DNA from: a virus
Taxonomy: Duplodnaviria > Caudoviricetes
Length of the DNA stretch: 54,276 bases
Virus record (IMG/VR): IMGVR_UViG_3300048895_000205
Location: 1-54,276 of that record
Direction: 5' to 3' (one strand)
The notes below the pieces were generated by a model that ran no database searches, was not told where the DNA came from, and worked only from the letters and a program-made list of their open reading frames with translations. Of this stretch, positions 3,125-19,885 are shown one piece after another. Position numbers and translations under genes: made by a program. Each line of letters starts with the position of its first letter. The stretch's first letter is position 1.

Positions 3125-5613
3125 GCTCTCAGCATGAACTCATTCACCTGCGTCCGCAGCCCAAGCCCGCGGTAGACCTGCCGGCCGGACTGCTTGAAGC
3201 TCTCGTGCCCGAGCACCTTGAGTCGAGCGCTCACCCGCTGCTTGCTGAACTGGCCGTATCCGTTGGTGTGGGCGTAGGCCCGGTACAGCTCGTAGACCGT
3301 GCCCACCGGGATGATCTCGGCCGGCGCCCGGACCAGGACGCCCTCGTCGACCAGCTCGGCCAGGAAGGTCGCGATCGGGTCGGCCTCGTTGCGGTACCGC
3401 TCGGTCGCGGACAACAGCGACTCCGGCTCCGCAAGGCCGCGCTCCTGGTACGCCTTGAGCCCGGCCAGCAGCCAGTTCAGGATGCCTGAGGACTCCTCGC
3501 GGTACAGCCGATCGGCCATGTCGCGGATCTCGCCCTTGCCGATGAAGGGCGTGTTCATCTCGATGACCTTGGCCCGGCGCCAGAGCGCATCGTCGTCCCC
3601 GCTGATGCGCGGGAGGAAGTTCGTGGCTACGAAGATCACGCACTCGGGTTGCCAGACCTGCTCGCGCTGGTACAGGGTGCGGGAGTTGATCGGGTCGCCA
3701 CCAGTGATCCGCTTGAGCAAGTTCTCGTTCAGGCTGGCGTCGCGCGGCAGCTCGGACGTCGCCACGAAGCGCTTCTTGCGCAGCTCGTGCAGGCTGGTCG
3801 AGCTGTCATTCTGGCTCTGCTTGAACACCGTCTCGTTGGCCGTGTGCCCGTAGTCGCCGAACATCCGGGCCATCAGGTTGGTCAGCGTGGACTTGCCGGT
3901 ACCACTGGGGCCGTGAAGCAGAAAGAACGTCCGCTCGTTGCTGGCACCGGTCAGCGTGTAGCCCAGCGCCCGCTGGACGTACTCACGGGTCGGCACGTCC
4001 GGGAAAGCCTGCGCCATGAACTGCTCGAACTTCGGGCAGGCCGCGGTCGGATCGAACTGGGCACCGAACCGCATGGTCATCATGTGCTCGGGCTTGTTGG
4101 CCTCGATCGTGTGCTCCTGGAGATCGAGCAGACCGTTCGGCAGGTTGAGCACGCCCTGAGCTTGGTCGAGCATCTCTTGGGTCGCGGCCATCGAGCGCAG
4201 GCAGGCGGCCTGGCGAACCATGGATCGGATCTTCCCGTCGCTCTGGGAGGTCATGCCGTAGTCGCGGTGTCGCTTGGCTGCTCGGCGTTCCTGGACGTTC
4301 GTTGCTGCCGCAAACATCGCTTCGCCCTCGGCAACGATGTCCTGGCCAATGCTCTGGGCCAGCTCGACGATCAGTTCGCTGTCCTCGAACCGCCAGCAGT
4401 GCCCGTCGTAGGTCAGCCAGCGGCGCGACGTGTGGTCGAAGACGAATGTGCCCTTCGCCTTCGCCTCCAGTCGTTGCGCGTTGCCCACGTCAGTCTCCGT
4501 GCGATCGAACAGTACGAGGGGTACGTCCCCAGGAGATTCTACCTCCTGGATGACACCCGTACGTACTGGAGCGGGAGCAGGGGCTGGGCTCGTGGACCAA
4601 TCGTCGTAGCTGACCTTGTCGCGGATCGTGCCGTAACCGAGGCGGGCTAGCTCGCGCACGGCCGGGATCAACTGGCCGCCGTGGTTGTAGAAGGCATAGA
4701 CCCAGAGCTTGGTCATCGGCTCCTCGACCGGCAGTCCGGTCGAGCTGGAGAAGACGTACATGCGGTCGCCTGTGGCCGACCGTCCCGTGGTTGCGGAGTG
4801 GCCCTCGCGCGGGTCCTTGCCGGGGCGTGTCCAGTACGTCGTCTGGCCCTGATGGCGGAAGACCTGCCAGCCGTGCGGTTCCAAGATCTCGGCCCAGCTG
4901 CCGCGAGCATTGAAGTCGTCGCCCGGCCGTAGCTCCTCGGACAGCGAGGTCACCGGCGGGTCATAGCGCGGGGCCGGCAAGCGCTCGGGCGCGCGGTCCA
5001 GAGCCGTCTTGATGGCCCGGTGAATGGCGCAGCGCTGTTCCCAGGTGATCGACCGGACCTGTCCCTGCACGCCCGAGACGGTGACCCAGGGCTCGCCCGA
5101 GGCGTGACAGCGGCCATCGGTCGGCGCGACGATCGAGTACCCGCCGGTGCCGCGCGTCTCGGCCAAGGTCTTCAGGTCTTCAGCCTGGGCGACCTTCTCG
5201 TTGCCCGGCACTTCGTGGTCCGAGATTCGGTAGATCATGTGCAAGCCGCCGGTGGGGGTCATCTCGGCGTATCCGGTCAAGCTCAGCTCATCCCAGAGAT
5301 GCTCGATCCCCACCAGCCGACACTGCTGCTGGATGGCGAACAGACTCTCGGCATCGGTCGCGGCCGACTCCAGCTCCAGCATCTCGACGTTGCCCGAGAC
5401 CGCGCCGCAGATCACGGCGACCCCGTAGTCCGAGCCGCCGGCCCACCAGCTATCGACTTGCTGGTCGGTCATCCGGGTGGTCATGAAGTCCGCCCAGCGG
5501 ACCGCGGGACGCTTGGTGCCGTCCGGCTTGATCGGTATGACGGAGAACCCGCCGGCATGCCACGGCGTGGCGATATTCATGAACCCTTGACCGATGGCCG
5601 TCTGGTCTGGCAC
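3121..5613 (-). CDS. bifunctional primase-polymerase fused to P4/D5-type SF3 helicase
   Basis: N-terminal Prim-Pol motifs (VIPIKPDGTKRP, TPTGGLH, TRGTGGY); D5_N TDVGNAQR; Walker A GPSGTGKS; ATNFLP; GTG 5613 after AAGGGG. Confidence 0.93.
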   Translation of the reverse strand: MPDQTAIGQGFMNIATPWHAGGFSVIPIKPDGTKRPAVRWADFMTTRMTDQQVDSWWAGGSDYGVAVICGAVSGNVEMLELESAATDAESLFAIQQQCRLVGIEHLWDELSLTGYAEMTPTGGLHMIYRISDHEVPGNEKVAQAEDLKTLAETRGTGGYSIVAPTDGRCHASGEPWVTVSGVQGQVRSITWEQRCAIHRAIKTALDRAPERLPAPRYDPPVTSLSEELRPGDDFNARGSWAEILEPHGWQVFRHQGQTTYWTRPGKDPREGHSATTGRSATGDRMYVFSSSTGLPVEEPMTKLWVYAFYNHGGQLIPAVRELARLGYGTIRDKVSYDDWSTSPAPAPAPVRTGVIQEVESPGDVPLVLFDRTETDVGNAQRLEAKAKGTFVFDHTSRRWLTYDGHCWRFEDSELIVELAQSIGQDIVAEGEAMFAAATNVQERRAAKRHRDYGMTSQSDGKIRSMVRQAACLRSMAATQEMLDQAQGVLNLPNGLLDLQEHTIEANKPEHMMTMRFGAQFDPTAACPKFEQFMAQAFPDVPTREYVQRALGYTLTGASNERTFFLLHGPSGTGKSTLTNLMARMFGDYGHTANETVFKQSQNDSSTSLHELRKKRFVATSELPRDASLNENLLKRITGGDPINSRTLYQREQVWQPECVIFVATNFLPRISGDDDALWRRAKVIEMNTPFIGKGEIRDMADRLYREESSGILNWLLAGLKAYQERGLAEPESLLSATERYRNEADPIATFLAELVDEGVLVRAPAEIIPVGTVYELYRAYAHTNGYGQFSKQRVSARLKVLGHESFKQSGRQVYRGLGLRTQVNEFMLRA

Positions 5614-6790: not shown

Positions 6791-7611
6791 TCGGCTCCCG
6801 GGCATCCGTCGGCACTGGCTCCGGTCAATGAACCCTCCCTCAGGTAGTACGGGCACCATCCACAATGGTCAGACGCGGCCGGGATCCGCTCGTAGATGTC
6901 GGGATTGTTGGCCACGTCGGCTGCGATCAGTCCACGGCCAATCGAGTACATGCGGGCCAGCGCGCGCTCCGCGATCTCGGGCCGGTAGACATCCGACCAG
7001 ACGTACATGCCGGACAGCCAGCCCGCTCGGGGCAAGAACACCAGAGCGACGTGCTTGACCTTGCGGCCGGCGTCGATATGGCCCTTGCCGTAGAGCTGGG
7101 TCTGGATCCGGTACCCGGCCGGCGGTCCGTGCTGCACGATCTTCTTGAGAACGTCTGGCCCCGATGACTTGTAATCGACCACGGTGCCGCTGGTTTCGTA
7201 GAGATCGGTGTGGCCGAGGACCAACGGATCAATGACCAGCTCCTGCTCGGTCAGATACGTCGTCAGTCCGTGGTGCGCTTGGAACTTGTTGACCGCGTCT
7301 TCCAGCCAGTGATGGATGCCGGTACCGACGATGGCGGGCCACGGGTCGCGACGCTTGTTGATCTCGCGGTTGTTGGCCAGCTTGTAGGCCATCTTGCGGT
7401 CACAGGGCGTGCCCAGCTCGGACGGGCCTATCTTAGCCTGGAGACTGCGCGGCGAGTTCTCGTTCGCCCAGTGGATGATCTCGGTCAGGGTCTGCTTGAG
7501 GTGCCGGTTCACGGCCTCGGCCTCAGGACCGTACGAGTCGCACAGCGGGTGCACCCCGGTGTTGTGCTGGATGCCTGGCTCCAGCGGCTCCAGGCAGACC
7601 ATGCAGTCCAT
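6787..7611 (-). CDS. Cas4-like PD-(D/E)xK exonuclease
   Basis: PSELG..CDRK, GTGIH, GHTDL..VVDYKS, QTQLYG, CGWCPY. Confidence 0.88.
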   Translation of the reverse strand: MDCMVCLEPLEPGIQHNTGVHPLCDSYGPEAEAVNRHLKQTLTEIIHWANENSPRSLQAKIGPSELGTPCDRKMAYKLANNREINKRRDPWPAIVGTGIHHWLEDAVNKFQAHHGLTTYLTEQELVIDPLVLGHTDLYETSGTVVDYKSSGPDVLKKIVQHGPPAGYRIQTQLYGKGHIDAGRKVKHVALVFLPRAGWLSGMYVWSDVYRPEIAERALARMYSIGRGLIAADVANNPDIYERIPAASDHCGWCPYYLREGSLTGASADGCPGAE

Positions 7612-7668
7612 GTGACCCCCTCCTACCCCGGTGATCCGGACGGTACAGGAGGGGTGCGACAGAAACCA

Positions 7669-7842
7669 GCCCCCGCTGTAGCTAGGTCAGCGGGGGCCGG
7701 CTTTGTGGATCTTTCTCGACGCGGCCTGCTTGGTGGGGCTTCCCCGCTCTCGCTTAGCCAGCAACGTGCCGGTACCGCGCGGGACGAAAGATCCACAAAG
7801 CCGGCCCCCGTCCTGCTGCCTCATTGCTCAACGGGGGCCGGC
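7669..7842 (-). promoter_or_regulatory. four-segment alternative hairpin element (attenuator-like)
   Basis: 25-bp perfect inverted repeat 7691-7715/7786-7810, each arm also able to pair with a flanking segment (7669-7678; 7831-7842). Confidence 0.6.
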
Positions 7843-7869
7843 GCCTTGGGTTCCCGACCTCGGCGGGAG

Positions 7870-8670
7870 CTAGCGTACCCACTCCGGCAGCAGGTTCTTG
7901 CGCTTGCCGGAGTTGTAGAGGCCGATGAGGACCTCGACGAGGCACACCTGGATGCGCCCGCGCTTGAGTTCACGCACCGTCCGCGCCTTGCCGAGCAGAC
8001 CGTGCAGGCCCTGCGGGACCTGGGTCATCTTCTCGGTCAGGCTTTCGGTGTCGATGATCTCGTGGCTGCGGGTGTACAGCATCGCGAGGGCCTCCAGCAC
8101 GCGCCCATCGAGCGTCTGCTTGCCCTTACCCCACGTGGTGAGGATGACCTGGAGCGACCAGTCCAGTGCCTGCACACCGTGGACTTCGACGATCTTACGT
8201 GCGGTCGAGATGGCCGCGAAGTCGCCGTTGTTCATCACCAGGCCATGCCGGTCAAGGATGGCCTGGATGGCGATGGCCTGCGGTTGCTTCTCCGTCACGG
8301 CAACGTTGAAGAGAGCCATGGCCCCGACCTTGGTGGTGTTGTTGAGCAGGCGGAAAAGCTTGGCCTCCTGCTGCATCGTCAGGCCCTCGAAGACGGCCGC
8401 GTGGATCGGGTCGTCGTAACCGTTGGCCACGGCGGCCTTCAGTCGGTGCTGTCCGTCCAAGCACACCAGGACACCGTTCTTGCGCCGACTTAGCGAAACG
8501 ACGTTGAGAGCTGCCGGCTCGAAGTTGTCGGTGATGTCGATGAGCTTCTTGGCTTCCTCGGGGCGCTGCACCCGAGGGTCGTAGGTCACCAGGGAGGGCT
8601 TGACCCATTCCAAGGTGGGCAGGGGGAGGCCGAGCGACTTGGCGGCCTCGGTAGCGGTAGTAGCGGTCAT
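7870..8670 (-). CDS. ParB/Srx-like N-terminal domain protein (DUF6551-like)
   Basis: YDPRVQR, LDGQHRL, EAKLFRLLN. Confidence 0.8.
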   Translation of the reverse strand: MTATTATEAAKSLGLPLPTLEWVKPSLVTYDPRVQRPEEAKKLIDITDNFEPAALNVVSLSRRKNGVLVCLDGQHRLKAAVANGYDDPIHAAVFEGLTMQQEAKLFRLLNNTTKVGAMALFNVAVTEKQPQAIAIQAILDRHGLVMNNGDFAAISTARKIVEVHGVQALDWSLQVILTTWGKGKQTLDGRVLEALAMLYTRSHEIIDTESLTEKMTQVPQGLHGLLGKARTVRELKRGRIQVCLVEVLIGLYNSGKRKNLLPEWVR

Positions 8671-9884: not shown

Positions 9885-11444
9885 CTACTGCTTGAGCAGC
9901 GCGTTGTGTGGCTCCACGTCGAACGGGATACCGCGGTACCGAGTCCGGCCCAGGGCGCCGTCGATCTCCTCGCGCACGAGGTCGTCCAGGGTCAGCTTGG
10001 TCGCGCCCTCGTTCGCGCCCAGCATGAGATCGAGCTGCGGTCGCAGCGAGGCTGCCGCGTACACCAGGTCGTCGGTCTCGATGATGCCCGGCCGGCCCTG
10101 ATTGCGACCCATGGTAAACCGCTGAGCCCGCAGGGCGGCCTCCTTGACGAACGCCGGCAGGAAGCCGTCGAACGCCTCGGCCACCTTGATCCAGTCGATC
10201 TTCTTGCCGAGGTACTCCGGCGTCACGTTGAGCGTGACCAGCTTCTTGAAGGCCTCGGTGTCGAGCGCGCCGATCTCGATGACCGCGTCGATACGGCCGG
10301 GACGCATGGCGCCCCGCTGGATCGAGCTGACGTGGTTGGTCGTGAACAGGCAGACGATCTCACGACCCTTGGTCGTGACGCCGTCGAGCGAGTCGAGCAT
10401 GCGGGAGATGTCGGCCTTCGTGCCGCCCTCGGCAGTCACGTCGATGTCCTCGATCACGACCACGGCCGGCGAGTACAACGCCGCGGTCTGCATGACCGAG
10501 GATGGGTCATCCCGGCCGGTGCGGCACATGAGGAACGTCCACCCGTTCTCGACGGCCTTCTTGGCCGTGAGCATGCAGCCCAGCGTCTTGCCCGTGCCGT
10601 ACGGACCTCCGAACAGGACCTTCCGGTTCAGCGGCATGAGCGAGCGCACCGTCTCCGAGTACTCGATCGGTACCCACACGTGGGCGTTGAGCTGGGCGAC
10701 CGTCGCCTCGTTGTAGACGACCGTCGCCTCGTCCAGGCTGAGCACGTCGAGGAACTGAGGGTTCAGCTGCGAGCCGTCGATGGCCTGGCCCCGGTAGATC
10801 GAGTTCTTGGACAGGTGCTCCTCCACGATGTTGAAGATGCCCTGGATGTGCTCGCGCCACCGGCGCGGAGCCTCGACGGTCAGATTGAACACGATCCCCC
10901 AGTCGTCGTCCTCGGTGTAGCCCACGTTGAACGTGGCCTCGTACATCGGGAACGCGACGTTGCCCCACGGCACCTGCTCGACGCGGGAGGGGCCGGTGTT
11001 GATGGAGATGAACTCGGGGTGCTTCGGGCCGAACATCGTGTATTCGGTCTTGCCGAAGCCGGTGGTGCCGGTGATCTGCTTCATCACCGTCATGAAGGCG
11101 TGCGCGCCGTCGTACGGCCGGGCCTTCATCCAGCGGGAGTACTTGAAGGTCTGGCTCTGCTGGTGCAGCCAGTTCTCCAGAAAGTCGATGGCCGAGCGCA
11201 CCTTGCCCTGGTACTGCTTGGGCAGGATGAACTTCTCGCCCTCGAAGATCAGGGAGTCGTCCTGGACGGTCTTGGCGCCGAGGCGCTTCAGCAGCGCCGA
11301 GACGGCGTCACGGAGCTTCTCCTCCTCGGTCGGCTCCTTGGCCTTGCTCTTCTCAGCCTGAACCTGGTCCAGGACGGTGGCGACCAGCGCGTCAGGAATG
11401 ACGCCGTCGGCCAACGCGACGATCTTTCCGTTGTCACTACTCAC
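9885..11444 (-). CDS. AAA+ ATPase
   Basis: GPYGTGKT, VVVIEDID, FTTNH, MRPGRID (second region of homology). Confidence 0.92.
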   Translation of the reverse strand: MSSDNGKIVALADGVIPDALVATVLDQVQAEKSKAKEPTEEEKLRDAVSALLKRLGAKTVQDDSLIFEGEKFILPKQYQGKVRSAIDFLENWLHQQSQTFKYSRWMKARPYDGAHAFMTVMKQITGTTGFGKTEYTMFGPKHPEFISINTGPSRVEQVPWGNVAFPMYEATFNVGYTEDDDWGIVFNLTVEAPRRWREHIQGIFNIVEEHLSKNSIYRGQAIDGSQLNPQFLDVLSLDEATVVYNEATVAQLNAHVWVPIEYSETVRSLMPLNRKVLFGGPYGTGKTLGCMLTAKKAVENGWTFLMCRTGRDDPSSVMQTAALYSPAVVVIEDIDVTAEGGTKADISRMLDSLDGVTTKGREIVCLFTTNHVSSIQRGAMRPGRIDAVIEIGALDTEAFKKLVTLNVTPEYLGKKIDWIKVAEAFDGFLPAFVKEAALRAQRFTMGRNQGRPGIIETDDLVYAAASLRPQLDLMLGANEGATKLTLDDLVREEIDGALGRTRYRGIPFDVEPHNALLKQ

Positions 11445-11469
11445 TGTCAGCTGCTCTCTCTCTGGGGGG

Positions 11470-11853
11470 TTAGTCCCACCAACCTTTGGCGGGACCGTGG
11501 TGATGCTGTCTCATAGGTGGTTCCGTCTCAATCTCGCCCGCGGCCCGGTATTCCTTCGCCGCACTCTTGAGCGAGTCTCGCTGTGCTCGCCGATCAGGTC
11601 CCCACCAGCAAAGCCTGCGGTCTTCACGAGAGGGGGAGTATCGGAAGCAGTAGCGGTTCTCGTGGTGGACAACCCACGAGCATCTTGTATCGGACCTCCT
11701 GCTCCCATATGCGGCAACGGACCGCACGGGGAAATCAGGAAGGTCACACGGGTATTTGGTTCGGAGAAGACCGTATCGACAGTAGTGACCGTGGAACGGC
11801 TCGTACCATTCCGCGGTTACCCAGCACGGCTTGTCTTTGTCGGTGCGCGACAT
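11470..11853 (-). CDS. hypothetical basic protein
   Basis: MSRTDKDKP..., AAGGGAG SD. Confidence 0.7.
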   Translation of the reverse strand: MSRTDKDKPCWVTAEWYEPFHGHYCRYGLLRTKYPCDLPDFPVRSVAAYGSRRSDTRCSWVVHHENRYCFRYSPSREDRRLCWWGPDRRAQRDSLKSAAKEYRAAGEIETEPPMRQHHHGPAKGWWD

Positions 11854-11884
11854 GATGACTCCCTTGGGGAGCCGGACTTTCCGG

Positions 11885-11902
11885 CTACAAGTTCCTCATC
11901 AC
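11885..11902 (-). other. possible minigene (MMRNL)
   Basis: AGAAAGGAG SD then GTG ATG AGG AAC TTG TAG. Confidence 0.35.
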
Positions 11903-12080
11903 GCACTCCTTTCTCTCGTAACAACCGGGGGGGACTCGGATCACAGTACGGCCGACCCGTAAACCGTGTCGGTTGAAACTCCCCGAGCCCCCATCGCTTC
12001 CCGGCGGTTGCCTTTTTCGCTGTTCTGGACAGGGCGTAGCCCTGCGACCCGGGGTGTAAACGGCAACGGAACGCACCCGT

Positions 12081-12145
12081 GTCCCCGCTCGGAATCGAAC
12101 CGATATGACTGTCCGCATGGTGGCGGGCCTCCCTCTCCAGGGGAG
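12081..12145 (-). ncRNA. degenerate tRNA-like element
   Basis: intact T arm TCGG-TTCGATT-CCGA, TCCCC/GGGGA acceptor-like pairing, CCGC/GCGG stem with 6-nt loop, no canonical D arm. Confidence 0.5.
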
Positions 12146-12730
12146 TTACGAGGACTTTGCTGCTGCTTGTTCTGCTTGCAGTTCCTTCATCATGGCTTCG
12201 ATCTCCACGGCCGTAGCCGGAAGCTCTGGCTCCACTTCGATGGCCGCCGCGTACCGATCGGGCAGCGCCCAGCCGAGCCCATCCAGGCGGCGCAGTTGCG
12301 CGCGGACCTGGCCGGCCCCCGGTCCCTGCACCGTGGTGAGAGCCATCGTGGCGTTCATGATCTCACCGAAGCCGCGGTCGGTGACCAGCATGTCGAGCAG
12401 GTTGTACAGCACAACGACCAGCCCCGCGCCGGTGATGGTCCACCGAGCGCTGGTGGGCATCATGAGGTTCTCTTCTCCAATGTGGACATGAGGCTCAGGA
12501 CAGTGCGCCGTGCAGTTCTTGCGCATGAAGTCCTTGAGCGGTCGGGCGGCCATGACCTCGGGTGACGTGCCCGTCAGTTCGCCCAGGCGGCGAACGACAG
12601 CGATCTCCTTTGTCTGCACGGCGAGCACCGCCTGCTTGGTTGCCCGGGTCTGGTTGTTCTTCAGGGCGATCCGACCCTTGAGGTCAATGATCGCGGCCAT
12701 CCAGCCCAGGTCCTTCGCTGCGATGCTCAC
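12146..12730 (-). CDS. LAGLIDADG-like protein (degenerate motif)
   Basis: N-terminal DLGWMAAIIDLKGRI; ARWTITG; GGAAAGGA SD. Confidence 0.65.
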   Translation of the reverse strand: MSIAAKDLGWMAAIIDLKGRIALKNNQTRATKQAVLAVQTKEIAVVRRLGELTGTSPEVMAARPLKDFMRKNCTAHCPEPHVHIGEENLMMPTSARWTITGAGLVVVLYNLLDMLVTDRGFGEIMNATMALTTVQGPGAGQVRAQLRRLDGLGWALPDRYAAAIEVEPELPATAVEIEAMMKELQAEQAAAKSS

Positions 12731-12769
12731 TGTCCACTGTCCTTTCCGTACTGCGCGATCGGGGGCGAG

Positions 12770-12964
12770 CTACGAGGCGTCGTACACCACGTCGATGGTC
12801 TCCGAGTGGTTTACGTGGACCACTCGCTTCCGCGCTCCACCAAGTCGGTCGCGGACAATGATCAGAGAAGATCCGTTGTCGAACTGTTGGGTCTGGATGT
12901 ACTCCCCAATTACTTCGAACGTGATCACGGTCCCGTTGACCACATGGGTGATGGTTGCCTTCAC
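12770..12964 (-). CDS. hypothetical protein
   Basis: VKATITHVVNG...; GTG begins 1 nt after the tRNA-Lys discriminator. Confidence 0.6.
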   Translation of the reverse strand: MKATITHVVNGTVITFEVIGEYIQTQQFDNGSSLIIVRDRLGGARKRVVHVNHSETIDVVYDAS

Positions 12965-12965
12965 G

Positions 12966-13037
12966 TGATCCAAGAAGGAGTCGAACCTTCAACCGACCGC
13001 TTAAGAGGCGGACGCTCTGCCATTGAGCTACTGGATC
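12966..13037 (-). tRNA. tRNA-Lys(CTT), CCA not encoded
   Basis: GATCCAG/TTGGATC acceptor, GCTC/GAGC D stem, CT-CTT-AA loop, GAAGG-TTCGACT-CCTTC T arm. Confidence 0.9.
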
Positions 13038-13128
13038 TTTTGACCACCATGAGCAGGCGATGGACGACCCCTTTCGGCATCGAATTGACAGTGTGCGCAC
13101 ACAGCAACCCGATGTTGTTCCGGCTTCG

Positions 13129-13201
13129 TTGCGGAGACCGGACTTGAACCGGCGACCTCTGGGTTATGAGCCCAGCGTGCTACCAACTGCACCACTCCGC
13201 G
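13129..13201 (-). tRNA. initiator tRNA-fMet(CAT), CCA not encoded
   Basis: C1:A72 mismatch, anticodon stem CTGGG/CCCAG with three G-C pairs, loop CT-CAT-AA. Confidence 0.92.
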
Positions 13202-13205
13202 ATGT

Positions 13206-13790
13206 CGGGCGACCCTGCTCCCTGAAGCAAGAGCAGGGGCGCCCTAGGGCCGGGTTCGGTTTCCCGAACGCCAGTTCCACCACTCCCCGCTCGGCCTTGA
13301 GCTAGGAGTTTGAGGGGGGCTCCGAATCCATCGTCGGTCCGGTTGAGGTCCTAGGATCGGAGCCCCCATGCGCCAGTTCTTTCGGGCTAAGCGGAGAACT
13401 GGCAATCCGCCACGGTCGCCTCACACTCTCGCTGGAAGGGCGAAGAGCGAGCGGGGCGCGCCCTCGTGGGCGCTCTCGGGAACTAATCGGGGGATCGACG
13501 CCGAGAGCAGCGCCACGTTAAGCAGGAGTCCAAGAAGGTGTGGTCATTGGACCCTTCTTGCAGTGCCCAGAAAGGTACCGCCCCGCCAATGAAGGCGGGA
13601 AACTCCTACGTGGATCCCCAGACGGAGAACGCCGAGAACGCCGCCTGGGGGCTTTGTTCTGCCCCGGTATCCCATCGCGTTGGTCTAGAGCGACGGGGGG
13701 ACCTGAGACTGGACGCTGGAACAGGAGGAACAGCGCAGCCTCACCGGGGCAGAAGATTCAGTTGTCAAGGGTGACCGTCTTGCCTTGCTG
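13206..13790 (-). ncRNA. large structured non-coding RNA candidate (~590 nt)
   Basis: no credible ORF; at least 8 nested or adjacent stems; lies between a TTGACA promoter and tRNA-fMet. Confidence 0.7.
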
Positions 13791-13796
13791 AAGCCA

Positions 13797-13827
13797 ACTC
13801 TACTACACCCCTACGTAGGGGTGTCAA
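13797..13827 (-). promoter_or_regulatory. promoter with palindromic operator
   Basis: TTGACA-N19-TAGAGT; perfect palindrome ACACCCCTACGTAGGGGTGT. Confidence 0.65.
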
Positions 13828-13881
13828 CCCTCAACTTCGTGGTTTCTGTACGTACCCGAATGTCCCAGTTACGCTGATCTT

Positions 13882-15309
13882 GTGGATATGTCGTTGAAGG
13901 CCCGCATCAGCCGCTTGCCGGCGGCGGAACGGGCTGCCTGGCTGTCCACGCTACAGCCCTGGATGGTCGAGGAGATCGCGCGCGGCGAGTGGTGGTGGAC
14001 TGCTCGACCAGAACAGATTCCACCGGTAGGAGACTGGTTCATCTGCTTGGCCCTGGCCGGGCGCGGATGGGGGAAGAGCCAGGCGGGCTCCGAATGGACC
14101 GTGGAGCAGGTCCTGAAGCACCCCTACGATTCCCGCGGTACGCCGACGGAGTGGCTGGTTATCGCCGAGACGCTGAGCGACGCCCGGACGATCTGCATGG
14201 AGGGGCCGGCGGGCATCCTGAACGTCCTGGACCGTCGGAAGATCAAGCATCGGTACAAGATGTCTCCGCGGCCGATGGTCCTGTTCCCGTCGGGCACGAA
14301 GATCTACACCGAGGGCGCGGACGACGCGGACGTTGGCCGCGGGTACAACGCGGCCGGTGCCTGGTGCGATGAGATTGCGAAGTGGAAGTGGCCCAAGCGG
14401 TCCTGGTACGAGGGCATCATGCCCTCACTCCGGGCGGACCTTGTCGGCGGTCGGCCGCAGGCTTTCGTAACGACGACGCCGAAGCCGATTGATCTGCTCC
14501 AGGAGTGGCTGAAGCGCGATGACGGCACGATTCACGTCATCCGTGGTGCCACTTTCGACAATGCGGCTAACCTCAGTAGCCACGTGGTCAAAGAACTCCG
14601 CGTACGTTACGAAGGCACAATCGTCGGGCGCCAAGAGCTTTACGGGGAAATGATCGAGGGCTTCGAGGGCGCCCTGTTCAACCGGCTCGACCTGGCCAAC
14701 TACCGCGTCGTCGAGCTGCCCGATATGGTCAAGTCCATCGTCGTCGGGGTCGACCCGAGCCTCACCGGGGAAGATGACGAAATGGGAGTGGTCGTCGTGG
14801 CCCGTACCACGGATAACGATATGTTCGTACTGGCAGACCGCTCCATCATGTCCGTTGGGCGCGAGGCAGCGCTTCACGCTTGGCGCACCGTAGCCGAATT
14901 CGGCGCTGACATGCTCATCTACGAAGCGAACCTGGGTAAACGCTGGATGCACCAAGTCTTTCACGACGCGTACTTCGAGCTTGTTGGGCAAGGTGTCTTC
15001 CCAGCGCATACGAAGCCCCCCATGAAACCGATCGACGCAAAAACAGGAAAACGTACCCGAGCTGAACCAGTCGCCATGCGGAGCGAGCAAGGGCGATTGC
15101 ACATGGTCGGCTTCCACGAAAAGCTCGAAGATCAGCTTGTCACCTTCGTCGGTTGGGGGTCCAACGAGTCGCCCGACCGCCTGGACGCGATGGTCCACGC
15201 CTGCCGGTGGTTGATGGACGGCGAGAAGAAGCAGGCCCGGCTGTCCAGTCCACATGATCAGCTCTCCACTACTCTTCAGTCGCTCTGGAACGAGACGTCG
15301 TACTGGTGA
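13882..15309 (+). CDS. terL: terminase large subunit
   Basis: AGRGWGKS Walker A, AWCDEIA Walker B, VTTTP, VGVDP and SPDRLDA nuclease motifs. Confidence 0.95.
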   Translation: MDMSLKARISRLPAAERAAWLSTLQPWMVEEIARGEWWWTARPEQIPPVGDWFICLALAGRGWGKSQAGSEWTVEQVLKHPYDSRGTPTEWLVIAETLSDARTICMEGPAGILNVLDRRKIKHRYKMSPRPMVLFPSGTKIYTEGADDADVGRGYNAAGAWCDEIAKWKWPKRSWYEGIMPSLRADLVGGRPQAFVTTTPKPIDLLQEWLKRDDGTIHVIRGATFDNAANLSSHVVKELRVRYEGTIVGRQELYGEMIEGFEGALFNRLDLANYRVVELPDMVKSIVVGVDPSLTGEDDEMGVVVVARTTDNDMFVLADRSIMSVGREAALHAWRTVAEFGADMLIYEANLGKRWMHQVFHDAYFELVGQGVFPAHTKPPMKPIDAKTGKRTRAEPVAMRSEQGRLHMVGFHEKLEDQLVTFVGWGSNESPDRLDAMVHACRWLMDGEKKQARLSSPHDQLSTTLQSLWNETSYW

Positions 15310-15739: not shown

Positions 15740-15761
15740 AACGACTGGGTTTTTGAGACCC

Positions 15762-15834
15762 ATTCCTTTGCAGGAATTGAACCTGCAACTCTCGGTTTAC
15801 AAGACCGATGCTCTGCCTATTGAGCTAAAAGGAT
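15762..15834 (-). tRNA. tRNA-Thr(TGT) with atypical acceptor stem
   Basis: GCTC/GAGC D stem, TCGGT-CT-TGT-AA-ACCGA, GCAGG-TTCAATT-CCTGC; A1:A72 mismatch; no CCA. Confidence 0.8.
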
Positions 15835-15841
15835 TGTCGGC

Positions 15842-16003
15842 GTTGCCATCCTTGTCAACCAGCAAACATTTAAAGCCACGTCTGAGATCTACAGAGCCGT
15901 CGCTCTACCACTGAGCTACAGGGCCATGTTGGAGGCCCCATCGGGGATCGAACCCGAGACTACGGCTATCTGATCGCGACTACTCGATCTGGCTGACCGC
16001 AAC
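15842..16003 (-). ncRNA. circularly permuted tRNA-like RNA (YrlA/Y-RNA-like topology)
   Basis: order is T arm, acceptor 3' strand + TCCA, ACAT linker, acceptor 5' strand, D arm; anticodon-stem AGCCGT/ACGGCT opens into a long closing stem. Confidence 0.85.
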
Positions 16004-17630: not shown

Positions 17631-17933
17631 ATGCTGGCGATATGGGCGTATGTCCTGATCACTCTGGCCGCGGCCCGGGTGACCCGGCTGGTTACCAAGG
17701 ATCGAATCGCGCTGGGACTGCGCAAGGGAATCGTGGCCAAGTACGGCGAAGGCTATTGGCTGGCCTACTTGGTTTTCTGCCCGTTCTGCGTCGGCTTCTG
17801 GCTGTCTTTGCCGGCCACTGTCGCCTGGATGCTGCTGACCCTGCCGCTGCATCTGTGGTGGCTGGCCGTTCCTGCTTGGCCGGCAATGAGCTATCTGATT
17901 GCACCGGTGCTGCTCAAGCTAGAAGGTGACTAA
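17631..17933 (+). CDS. DUF1360-like membrane protein
   Basis: LAAARVTRLVTKDRI...CPFCVGFW; directly before portal; TATGAT-N6-ATG. Confidence 0.8.
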   Translation: MLAIWAYVLITLAAARVTRLVTKDRIALGLRKGIVAKYGEGYWLAYLVFCPFCVGFWLSLPATVAWMLLTLPLHLWWLAVPAWPAMSYLIAPVLLKLEGD

Positions 17934-19885
17934 TGGCCTTCGGCCGGAGCAAGGACGTCGCGGTCATTGAGGACGCGCCTGTCGTTCGCGCGTCCCGCGG
18001 TACGCCTCGCTCCTTGGTCGCATCCGCGGTCCAGATGCGCATGGACGACGCCTCATACAACACGTACCGCTTTCGCGATGAGACTTGGCAGCGTGAGCTG
18101 TGGCGCCTGTATGACATCATTCCCGAGTTCGGCTACGCCGCTCGTTGGGTCGGCTCATGCTGCTCGCAGGTCCGGATCTTTGTAGCCGAGGTCGACAAGC
18201 TCGGACGGGTCCAGGGCGAGACAACCAACGAGAAGATCAACGCGCTCTCGGACAGCCTGCTCGGCGGTCCCAGCTCGAAAGCCGAAGCGCTACGGTCCAT
18301 CGGCATCAACCTGACCGTGGCCGGCGAGGCCTACATCCTCGGTCGTACCGACAACGTCCTGGACAAGGACGAGTGGTTCATTCTCTCCAGCTCCGAGTTC
18401 CGCCGGGTCCGCAACTGCGGAAACAACGGCGGTACGTGTCTTGGGTGGGGCGACAAGTACGCACCGCAGATCGTGGACCTAGCCAAGCAGGTCGTCACTC
18501 GGGTCTGGACCCCGCATCCGCAGCGCATTTGGCTGGCCGACTCACCTTCGCGCTCGTGTCAGCCGGTTCTGCGCGAGCTGGAACAGCTCACCAAGTACGT
18601 GTTCAGCCAGATCGATAGCCGCCTGGTCGGCGCTGGCCTACTGGTCATCCCCAACAACCTGGACTTCCCGCAGGACCCGGCGCAGGAAGAGAACGTCTCC
18701 TCGTCGGACACGCTGCTGATGAAGCTGGCCACGGCTGGCGCGGCCTCGCTCCGCGGTGAGGGCACGGCGATGGCGGTCCTGCCGCACATCATCGAGGCCA
18801 ACCCTGAGGACGTCGAGCGCGGCTTCCGGCTCATCGAGTTCGCCAGCGAACTGTCCAAGCAGGCCATGGAGCTGCGCGACGAGGCGATCCGCCGGCTGGC
18901 CACTGGCATGGACATGCCGGCCGAGGCGCTGACGGGCATGGGCGATACGAACCACTGGAACGGTTGGTTCATCGACGGCTACGGCATCAAGGTCCACATT
19001 GAACCGTTGATGAACCGGATCTGTCAGGCGCTCACCAAGGCCTACCTGATCCCGGCACTCAAGCTCATGGGCGTCAAGGACCCAGCCCGGTACCAGTTCT
19101 CCTTCGATACCGCCCCGCTCGCAGTGCGCCCGCAGCGACTTCAGGATGCCCTGAACCTGTACGAGAAGCGCATCATCGGGGCTGCCGCGGTGCGCGATGC
19201 CGGCAACTTCAAGGAGTCCGACGCGATGACCGGCGACGAGCTGGCCGCGAGCGAGACCCTGGAGATCGTCCTGCGTGATCCAAACCTGTATCAGAAGCTG
19301 GGTGTCCGCGAACTCATCGGCATCAGCAAGGAGATGCTGCCGCAGGACGAGTTCATCATGGCCACACCCGGCCTGGGTGGAGGCGGCCCGGGAGCACCGC
19401 CACCACCTGCGCCGCCGACCGGAATCCAGTCAGAGCTACCGCCACCCATTCCGGACACCCAAGGCGAGATACCCCCGCCGCAAGGCACGCCACCGGGCGG
19501 GGGCGGCGCGGTGACCGCCTCCCTGGCTTCCCGGGAGGAACTGGGTCTGATCGTGCTGTCCGAGGCCGCGGTCCGGCGCGGGCTTGAGCTGGCCGGGAAG
19601 CGCCTGCTGGATCGGCATAACCGTGACAGATGGCCAGACGTGCCACACTTCGATCTCCATACACGCATCCGCGTCACAGACACTGCACACGCGACCCGTC
19701 TGCTCAACGGCGCCTGGGACCAGCTCAATGGACTCGTGGATGTCTTGGATGCGGACGTAGACCCAGATCGGCTCCGTCAGTCGCTTCACCGTTACTGCTG
19801 TGCCCTTCTTACGACGGCCAGTCCCCACGTCCCGCAGAACCTTTTCGCCATGCTGCGCGCAGAAGGCCTTATTCATGGGAGCTAG
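17933..19885 (+). CDS. portal protein
   Basis: WQ.E.WRLYD..PE, R.W.PHP, AIRRLA.GMDMP.E.L.G....NHW; position in head module. Confidence 0.88.
   Translation: MAFGRSKDVAVIEDAPVVRASRGTPRSLVASAVQMRMDDASYNTYRFRDETWQRELWRLYDIIPEFGYAARWVGSCCSQVRIFVAEVDKLGRVQGETTNEKINALSDSLLGGPSSKAEALRSIGINLTVAGEAYILGRTDNVLDKDEWFILSSSEFRRVRNCGNNGGTCLGWGDKYAPQIVDLAKQVVTRVWTPHPQRIWLADSPSRSCQPVLRELEQLTKYVFSQIDSRLVGAGLLVIPNNLDFPQDPAQEENVSSSDTLLMKLATAGAASLRGEGTAMAVLPHIIEANPEDVERGFRLIEFASELSKQAMELRDEAIRRLATGMDMPAEALTGMGDTNHWNGWFIDGYGIKVHIEPLMNRICQALTKAYLIPALKLMGVKDPARYQFSFDTAPLAVRPQRLQDALNLYEKRIIGAAAVRDAGNFKESDAMTGDELAASETLEIVLRDPNLYQKLGVRELIGISKEMLPQDEFIMATPGLGGGGPGAPPPPAPPTGIQSELPPPIPDTQGEIPPPQGTPPGGGGAVTASLASREELGLIVLSEAAVRRGLELAGKRLLDRHNRDRWPDVPHFDLHTRIRVTDTAHATRLLNGAWDQLNGLVDVLDADVDPDRLRQSLHRYCCALLTTASPHVPQNLFAMLRAEGLIHGS

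Follow-up and report, generated by a model that had tools for sequence, protein, structure and literature searches.

What does a phage encode in nearly 600 nt of DNA that head a tRNA operon and hold no recognizable gene? The question is raised by positions 13206–13790 of the window, by which we mean the whole stretch of DNA analyzed here, an IMG/VR virus genome of 54,276 nt that looks ~98% complete. The candidate lies upstream of, contiguous with and on the same (minus) strand as two tRNA genes called by both ARAGORN and Rfam, tRNA-Met (CAT; 13128–13201, 67.8 bits) and the second gene of the operon, tRNA-Lys (CTT; 12965–13037). The tRNA-Met, whose 5′ end sets the presumed RNase P site, has a mismatch, C1/A72, and an anticodon stem with three G-C pairs at its base, which we take to be marks of a bacterial initiator tRNA. 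Left of ~13,000, the minus strand carries genes for a primase-polymerase, a ParB-like protein and an AAA ATPase together with small ORFs, and the plus-strand genes include the large terminase (13882–15309), directly beside the candidate, and the portal (17933–19885). DNA of this phage is present in 14 soil or root metagenome runs, none listed as an RNA run, which bears in neither direction on expression. Among isolated phages, a search with the portal matched 877 records, all of them actinobacteriophages (top match, Actinoplanes phage phiAsp2 at 33.5%), so the host is probably a soil actinobacterium. To our knowledge, few bacterial RNAs are as poorly understood as the large phage RNAs that lie by tRNA genes, such as GOLLD and ROOL, all known examples of which came to light through their conservation.

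The earlier note, made from the sequence without database searches, had found no credible ORF in this region, and the coding statistics agree. The longest ORFs within the candidate span 53–83 aa and show no codon periodicity, their G+C being flat over codon positions 1, 2 and 3 (0.54–0.72) without GC3 excess; GC3 is 0.75–0.94 in six of the seven neighboring ORFs that were checked and 0.66 in the seventh (11470–11853). The sliding codon-phase range is 0.07–0.20 over 13121–13780, a collapsed signal, and tblastx of the candidate against 240 related loci returned scattered weak matches only. A protein-coding gene is ruled out by ORFs of no more than 83 aa, flat position-specific G+C and weak tblastx matches, and 13202–13790 is non-coding. 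Another stretch of the leftward operon, 11444–12146, also has a weak coding signal (G+C 0.58/0.55/0.66 at codon positions 1/2/3 of ORF 11470–11853), and ~150 nt within it, at 11757–11912, are conserved in loci L002, L005, L007 and L009.

Upstream of the candidate, just left of the terminase start, a block of ~100 nt (13741–13838) aligns in 12 of 12 relatives. On the minus strand it holds a −35-like TTGACA hexamer (13822–13827), invariant or nearly so in all 12, followed by a 16-nt perfect palindrome, ACCCCTACGTAGGGGT (13807–13822), with a conserved core, CCCCnACGTnGGGG, and by a −10-like hexamer, TAGAGT (13797–13802; family consensus TAnnGT), which was recognized in the relatives' alignment and would place the transcription start at ~13790. 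About 40 nt further on, at approximately +25 to +30 of the predicted transcript, is a second box, CTTGACAAC (13761–13769), conserved in most of the 12 relatives. The spacer between TTGACA and TAnnGT is 18–21 nt among relatives and 19 nt here. An operator-bearing TTGACA promoter had been proposed at this position; the hexamer and the palindrome are real and conserved in all 12 relatives, but a simple sigma-70 consensus scan called no promoter at the block, a miss explained by the 19-nt spacer, which lies outside the scanned range of 16–18 nt. Conservation and hexamer identity lead us to call the block promoter-like and to read it as directing leftward transcription, with the palindrome as a possible operator and the CTTGACAAC box as a possible antitermination site.

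The CTTGACAAC box forms the 3′ arm of a small 5′ hairpin, in which CAAG(G) pairs with (C)CUUG in individual folds of the window and of relatives L002, L163 and L172; RNAalifold on the promoter-proximal block did not find a consensus structure. According to excerpts of their published description, the leaders of Bacillus subtilis rrn operons also have a small 5′ hairpin followed by a conserved short box, a likeness that we regard as a lead and not as a test. The candidate would further resemble a pre-tRNA or rrn leader in being promoter-proximal, untranslated, joined to stable RNA genes and cut at a tRNA 5′ end. By eye, the CTTGACAAC box is loosely like boxA of the Escherichia coli and B. subtilis rrn leaders (~6/12).

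The earlier description of a structured, strand-asymmetric region on the minus strand is borne out by folding. The minus strand of the candidate has a minimum free energy (MFE) of −296 kcal/mol, with a z-score of −6.17 against 100 dinucleotide shuffles, none of which folded as well, compared with −3.79 for the plus strand, and the leader body alone scored −5.2 on the minus strand versus −2.2 on the plus strand. As a natural control, we regressed MFE on G+C in 358 overlapping 600-nt segments of the genome, both strands included, and the candidate's minus strand had the third lowest GC-adjusted MFE of the 358. The only lower values are those of the two strands of 7501–8100 (residual z −4.0 and −3.2), the strongest fold of the genome after G+C adjustment, in a segment that sits among overlapping long ORFs of either orientation.

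Single-sequence folds, in which only nested pairing was modeled, contain several multiloops and divide the minus-strand RNA into high-probability domains. Nine stems had been proposed; seven have ensemble pair probabilities of at least 0.78, and the other two are minor alternatives at 0.16. Domain 1 (13658–13753) is closed by helix 13744–53/13658–67 (0.98–0.99), part of a perfect 12-bp complement, 13657–13668/13743–13754, that had been pointed out earlier (mean pair probability 0.94); it encloses helices 13737–42/13705–10 and 13731–35/13714–18 and a hairpin, 13690–97/13671–78. Domain 2 (13469–13642) has a multibranch core (0.93–1.0) with hairpins at 13582–99, 13560–81 and 13532–59. The expected closing helix of this core is present with a probability of 0.98, located at 13522–13530/13601–13609 and not exactly at 13513–29/13602–13 as first drawn, and the proposed stems 13582–13599 (1.0) and 13531–38/13553–60 (0.84) were both recovered. 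Around the core, a long-range pairing, 13613–42/13469–96 (0.83), competes with two local hairpins, 13616–25/13641–50 and 13472–79/13501–08, which are the two proposed stems that fared poorly, being true complements of only 0.16 probability.

Downstream of domain 2, the hairpin 13396–403/13372–79 (13372–13403; 0.79, and 0.78 for the stem as proposed, 13372–80/13395–403) has an alternative partner. It involves the repeat CGCCAGTTC, present at 13269–77 and 13371–79, which had been suggested to offer alternative pairing and does so in the folds: the partner is the distal copy in the MFE structure and the proximal copy in the centroid. A long hairpin domain follows (13315–13367; helix 13358–67/13315–24 and inner helices, 0.97–0.99; proposed stem 13315–25/13357–67, 0.95), and then two hairpins, 13299–309/13282–92 and 13264–73/13251–59 (13251–13309; 0.92–0.94). 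The last element is a 3′-terminal hairpin of 15 bp (13207–13244), likewise among the stems proposed, which has a probability of 0.95 and ends 5 nt before the tRNA.

The RNA matches no known family. The earlier note could assign it to neither GOLLD nor ROOL, and covariance-model searches came to the same result. An Rfam 15 cmscan of the whole window at the gathering score reported three tRNAs only, and scans at E ≤ 10 of 12900–14000 (1101 nt) and 13202–13800 (599 nt) reported only noise, such as Chloroflexus-1 (13.3 bits), pRNA (14 bits), mir-345 (13.2 bits) and PhotoRC-I (10.7 bits). The ROOL model (RF03087; gathering score, 99.1 bits) found nothing at E ≤ 10 in the whole record, a weak result by itself since 14 control genomes were likewise silent, and ROOL had no row in the all-Rfam scans at either the gathering score or E ≤ 10 (1101 nt and 599 nt). 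GOLLD had no row in the Rfam 15 scans, its inclusion among the 4227 models being presumed from a published statement that the GOLLD profile comes from Rfam, and the group-II-D1D4-1 model (RF01998) gave no match. A literature search on long structured leaders of actinophage tRNA operons yielded nothing relevant among the matches listed.

Likeness of setting nevertheless gives some weight to the idea that the region encodes a free-standing, stable, large non-coding RNA with a function in trans that RNase P would release, either in a ROOL- or GOLLD-like context or as a decoy or scaffold in phage–host conflict. As described in the literature, ROOL RNAs average 581 nt, contain six multistem junctions along with three pseudoknots, come from several phyla, and are found in phage and prophage genomes, frequently close to tRNA genes, with function unknown. 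The candidate, at ~589 nt, shares the size, the phage origin and the position beside tRNAs, and its predicted folds show many helices and junctions, but it fails the ROOL model, has no relatives in any source searched and probably belongs to an actinobacterial host. GOLLD is described as a phage and prophage RNA near tRNA islands whose 3′ region is universally conserved; many members are longer than 800 nt, one studied member adjoins a Met-tRNA, and tRNAs can lie within its linker. The candidate is again alike in lying near phage tRNAs and adjoining tRNA-Met, but it can span no more than ~590 nt from promoter block to tRNA and has no GOLLD model match. The several high-probability multi-helix domains also fit an RNA that acts on its own, and a role as decoy or scaffold would explain rapid replacement between lineages. 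Set against this reading, which we consider unlikely although the strongest of the alternatives, are the lack of any Rfam match and findings on relatives that are given below.

Another possibility is that the region is evolutionary debris, left by decayed tRNA genes or a lost gene at a mosaic junction, and that its fold energy follows incidentally from a G+C-rich makeup and former tRNA stems, without selection for any function. Short tRNA-like words do occur in the leader, at 13271–89 (79% similar to the 5′ part of tRNA-Met) and 13490–506 (similar to a T arm), and are the kind of trace that decay might leave. The direct tests went the other way. The tRNA model (RF00005) at E ≤ 10 on the 599 nt matched nothing inside the candidate, ARAGORN relaxed to 80% called no minus-strand tRNA there (and one doubtful plus-strand tRNA), and in blastn against 25 distinct tRNAs of these phages 42 of 60 shuffles did as well as the candidate. 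With all three negative, an array of tRNA remnants or pseudogenes is unsupported, and the scattered, weak tblastx matches to the 240 loci speak against a lost gene.

With the terminase as query, IMG/VR and JGI metagenomes yielded relatives that share at most 79% identity in it; the same scan of a genome collection reached at most 38% identity, in Alphaproteobacteria and others. No homologue of the candidate was found by any of the searches. Distant-mode blastn against 50,697 INPHARED phage records returned tRNA matches only, and neither blastn nor nhmmer gave anything below E 0.1 on 80, later 240, loci around related terminases. Comparison with the whole records of eight relatives (L168 and L174 not included) yielded only matches of 14–25 nt with E of at least 0.05, three exact candidate words of 19–24 nt had no match each in IMG/VR, and a single-sequence covariance model of domain 2 searched against 25 sources (the window and the 24 closest loci) found only itself. 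Since no homologue turned up in anything searched, the fold has no cross-species covariation support, and this also tells against an independent RNA.

What the relatives carry instead is informative. In those whose terminase is 74–79% identical, the promoter block and the tRNA-Met are retained (L002/L173, L163 and L172), but the leader between them is unrelated. The four phages in which tRNA-Met comes first have block-to-tRNA bodies of ~320–540 nt that are mutually unrelated, with transcribed-strand fold z-scores of −5.2 in the window, −5.0 in L002, −2.5 in L163 and −6.2 in L172, and in each of them a stable helix ends the leader 2–6 nt before tRNA-Met. The strand bias is not general, because in L002 and L172 the opposite strand of the leader gives about as good a fold. 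In L003/L162 (77% terminase identity) only ~85 nt separate the block from a tRNA-Thr, which shows that a long leader is dispensable, and in a group with tRNA-Arg a long gap precedes a protein gene. The slot between block and tRNA is plastic, and the long leader is not universal.

These comparisons bear on each of the readings. Earlier speculation that the RNA might be a new class does not hold up: no sequence or covariance-model homologue exists among the sources searched, close relatives have unrelated or nearly absent sequence in its place, and a sequence that is an orphan and turns over completely from one close lineage to the next gives no support to the word class. For an RNA that acts on its own, the presence of unrelated, equally structured RNAs in the same slot of three relatives is a favorable sign, and the close lineage without a long leader is an unfavorable one. 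Decay would fit a leader that is not conserved between lineages and a plastic zone, from block to AAA ATPase, in which tRNA content differs in every relative and some tRNAs are degenerate or odd (L002, L163 and L172). It fits poorly with the leader's place upstream of the first tRNA in all four phages that begin with tRNA-Met, a position where relatives lack tRNAs, and overall we think it improbable, somewhat more so than a free-standing RNA.

Alternatively, the slot in these actinophage-like soil viruses might be a cassette for interchangeable, unrelated, large structured RNAs of ~320–590 nt, each with a protective helix abutting the tRNA, released by RNase P as a stable RNA and acting in trans, which would make the RNA in the window the first member of a hypervariable kind of non-coding RNA. 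A trans role as decoy or scaffold would then account for complete turnover of the sequence alongside a lasting position, structuredness and terminal helix; we hold this to be doubtful, and less probable than decay.

The odd tRNAs of the relatives include two long matches to the tRNA model, at 315–431 in L172 (117 nt, 43.7 bits) and 681–785 in L163 (105 nt, 40.2 bits), and a degenerate match at 3343–3420 in L002 (23.8 bits), left uncalled by ARAGORN. They may be tRNAs with inserts or pseudogenes.

Variation within the population provides evidence of a different kind. We aligned contigs of four soil runs on 12700–14300 and found a diverged strain in run X8, represented by one contig of depth 3.3 that covers 13175–13729. 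It differs from the window by 15 substitutions (14 itemised by position), and ten of these, with all three insertions, fall in the tRNA-proximal hairpin 13207–13244. On the minus strand, the hairpin of the computationally rebuilt variant is kept and lengthened, its energy going from −30.1 to −33.3 kcal/mol, compared with −26.5 to −17.7 kcal/mol on the plus strand, near the mean of −15.6 for random changes. Of 3000 trials with equally many random changes, one attained −33.3, as did 2% of trials with random letters placed at the same positions. All the hairpin changes preserve or lengthen the minus-strand pairing through G·U-compatible exchanges; several turn G-C into G·U or U-A into G·U, pairs that only RNA of the minus strand can form.

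Beyond the 3′ hairpin, the change 13668 T>C replaces A-U with G·U in the pair with 13743, again solely on the minus strand. In the local hairpin, 13622 A>G makes C-G out of a minus-strand U·G pair, and it would break the long-range pair of the MFE structure; the changes at 13680 and 13296 are unpaired. The hairpin changes support RNA-level constraint on that tRNA-proximal helix, and the variant supplies all the evidence for selection on structure, solid for that one helix and thin for the remaining fold. The body (13245–13729) has 4 differences in 485 nt, compared with 12 in 318 nt of 12700–13017 (Fisher p 0.0075), a low divergence that could instead come from mosaic recombination. In run X5, the terminase start (13915–14047) differs at 10 of 133 nt and the block and leader (13681–13881) are identical to the window, a contrast suggestive of recombination with a boundary close to where the terminase gene begins.

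The X8 variant also bears on a reading in which the inverted repeats act as DNA, either in packaging (a pac/cos site) or as an origin of replication. Such an element would suit a place directly upstream of the large terminase gene with no recognizable small-terminase gene adjacent, and the plus strand of the candidate, too, beats its shuffles (z −3.8). The variant, however, keeps its pairing through G·U pairs that exist in the minus-strand RNA only, and the corresponding plus-strand or DNA hairpin is wrecked. The better fold of the minus strand, the lack of direct-repeat arrays like those of terminase- or initiator-binding sites, and a body that is unconserved among relatives sharing the terminase at up to 79% also count against it, and we consider a DNA element very improbable. 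Compensatory, strand-specific evolution of the 3′ hairpin is likewise not predicted if the region is decaying. For a free-standing RNA the same data are favorable on two points, in that a terminal hairpin under compensatory constraint would stabilize the released product and the variant's body shows less divergence than the coding sequence beside it.

Taking these lines together, we tentatively favor, at a little under even confidence, the interpretation that the stretch is a long, untranslated, base-paired 5′ leader of the leftward unit, removed by RNase P, lineage-specific, fast-evolving and protective in cis. This interpretation follows from the non-coding status, the minus-strand-biased fold, contiguity with the tRNAs, conserved flanks around an unrelated body, the structured leaders of relatives, each with a tRNA-abutting helix, the pairing-preserving changes in X8 and the low divergence of the body in that strain. 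The unit would run from the block (13797–13827) through the leader (13790–13202), tRNA-fMet, tRNA-Lys and small ORFs to the AAA ATPase and replication genes, with transcription starting at about 13790. By analogy with general tRNA biology, RNase P would cut at 13201/13202 and free the leader, and the earlier proposal that this enzyme defines the 3′ end is consistent with the position directly upstream of an initiator-type tRNA. The helix 5 nt before the tRNA may prevent mispairing between leader and tRNA and offer a clean RNase P substrate, and after cleavage it could cap the 3′ end of the leader against 3′ exonucleases. Dense pairing would presumably shield a long, ribosome-free transcript from endonucleases and Rho. 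The leader is, on our best reading, an accessory segment and not a conserved ribozyme-like RNA.

Counted against a protective leader are the blank sigma-70 scan, the 18–21-nt spacer, the absence of strand bias in the L002 and L172 leaders, the short form in L003/L162, the reliance on a single X8 contig, the chance that mosaicism explains the low divergence of the body, and the length itself. Ordinary bacterial pre-tRNA leaders measure tens of nucleotides, compared with ~590 here, and protection alone leaves that length unaccounted for. We regard the feature as a real but unvalidated candidate: a non-coding, strongly structured RNA-level feature, an orphan and outside known families.

The locus has the same setting and size as GOLLD and ROOL, yet its conservation ends at the strain level. 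Should such leaders have a function, searches that rely on conservation overlook an entire layer of rapidly evolving phage RNAs; should they serve only as protective spacers, fold energy and tRNA adjacency should be treated with caution as evidence for new RNA classes. Either way, the strand-specific compensatory evolution of a helix adjoining a tRNA is a concrete, testable feature of phage pre-tRNA processing.

A sub-threshold match to another RNA family also adjoins a tRNA gene of this genome. On the minus strand at 15867–15988, the YrlA/Y RNA-like model (RF02553) scores 35.2 bits (E 7.7e-6), below its gathering score of 69, and the fold z-score is only −1.6. Published YrlA RNAs adjoin Ro60 genes, including in phages, and a TROVE/Ro60 gene is absent from this phage. 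Within the match, a tRNA-like module occurs in permuted order (T arm, stem, D arm), and the neighboring gene is tRNA-Thr at 15761–15835.
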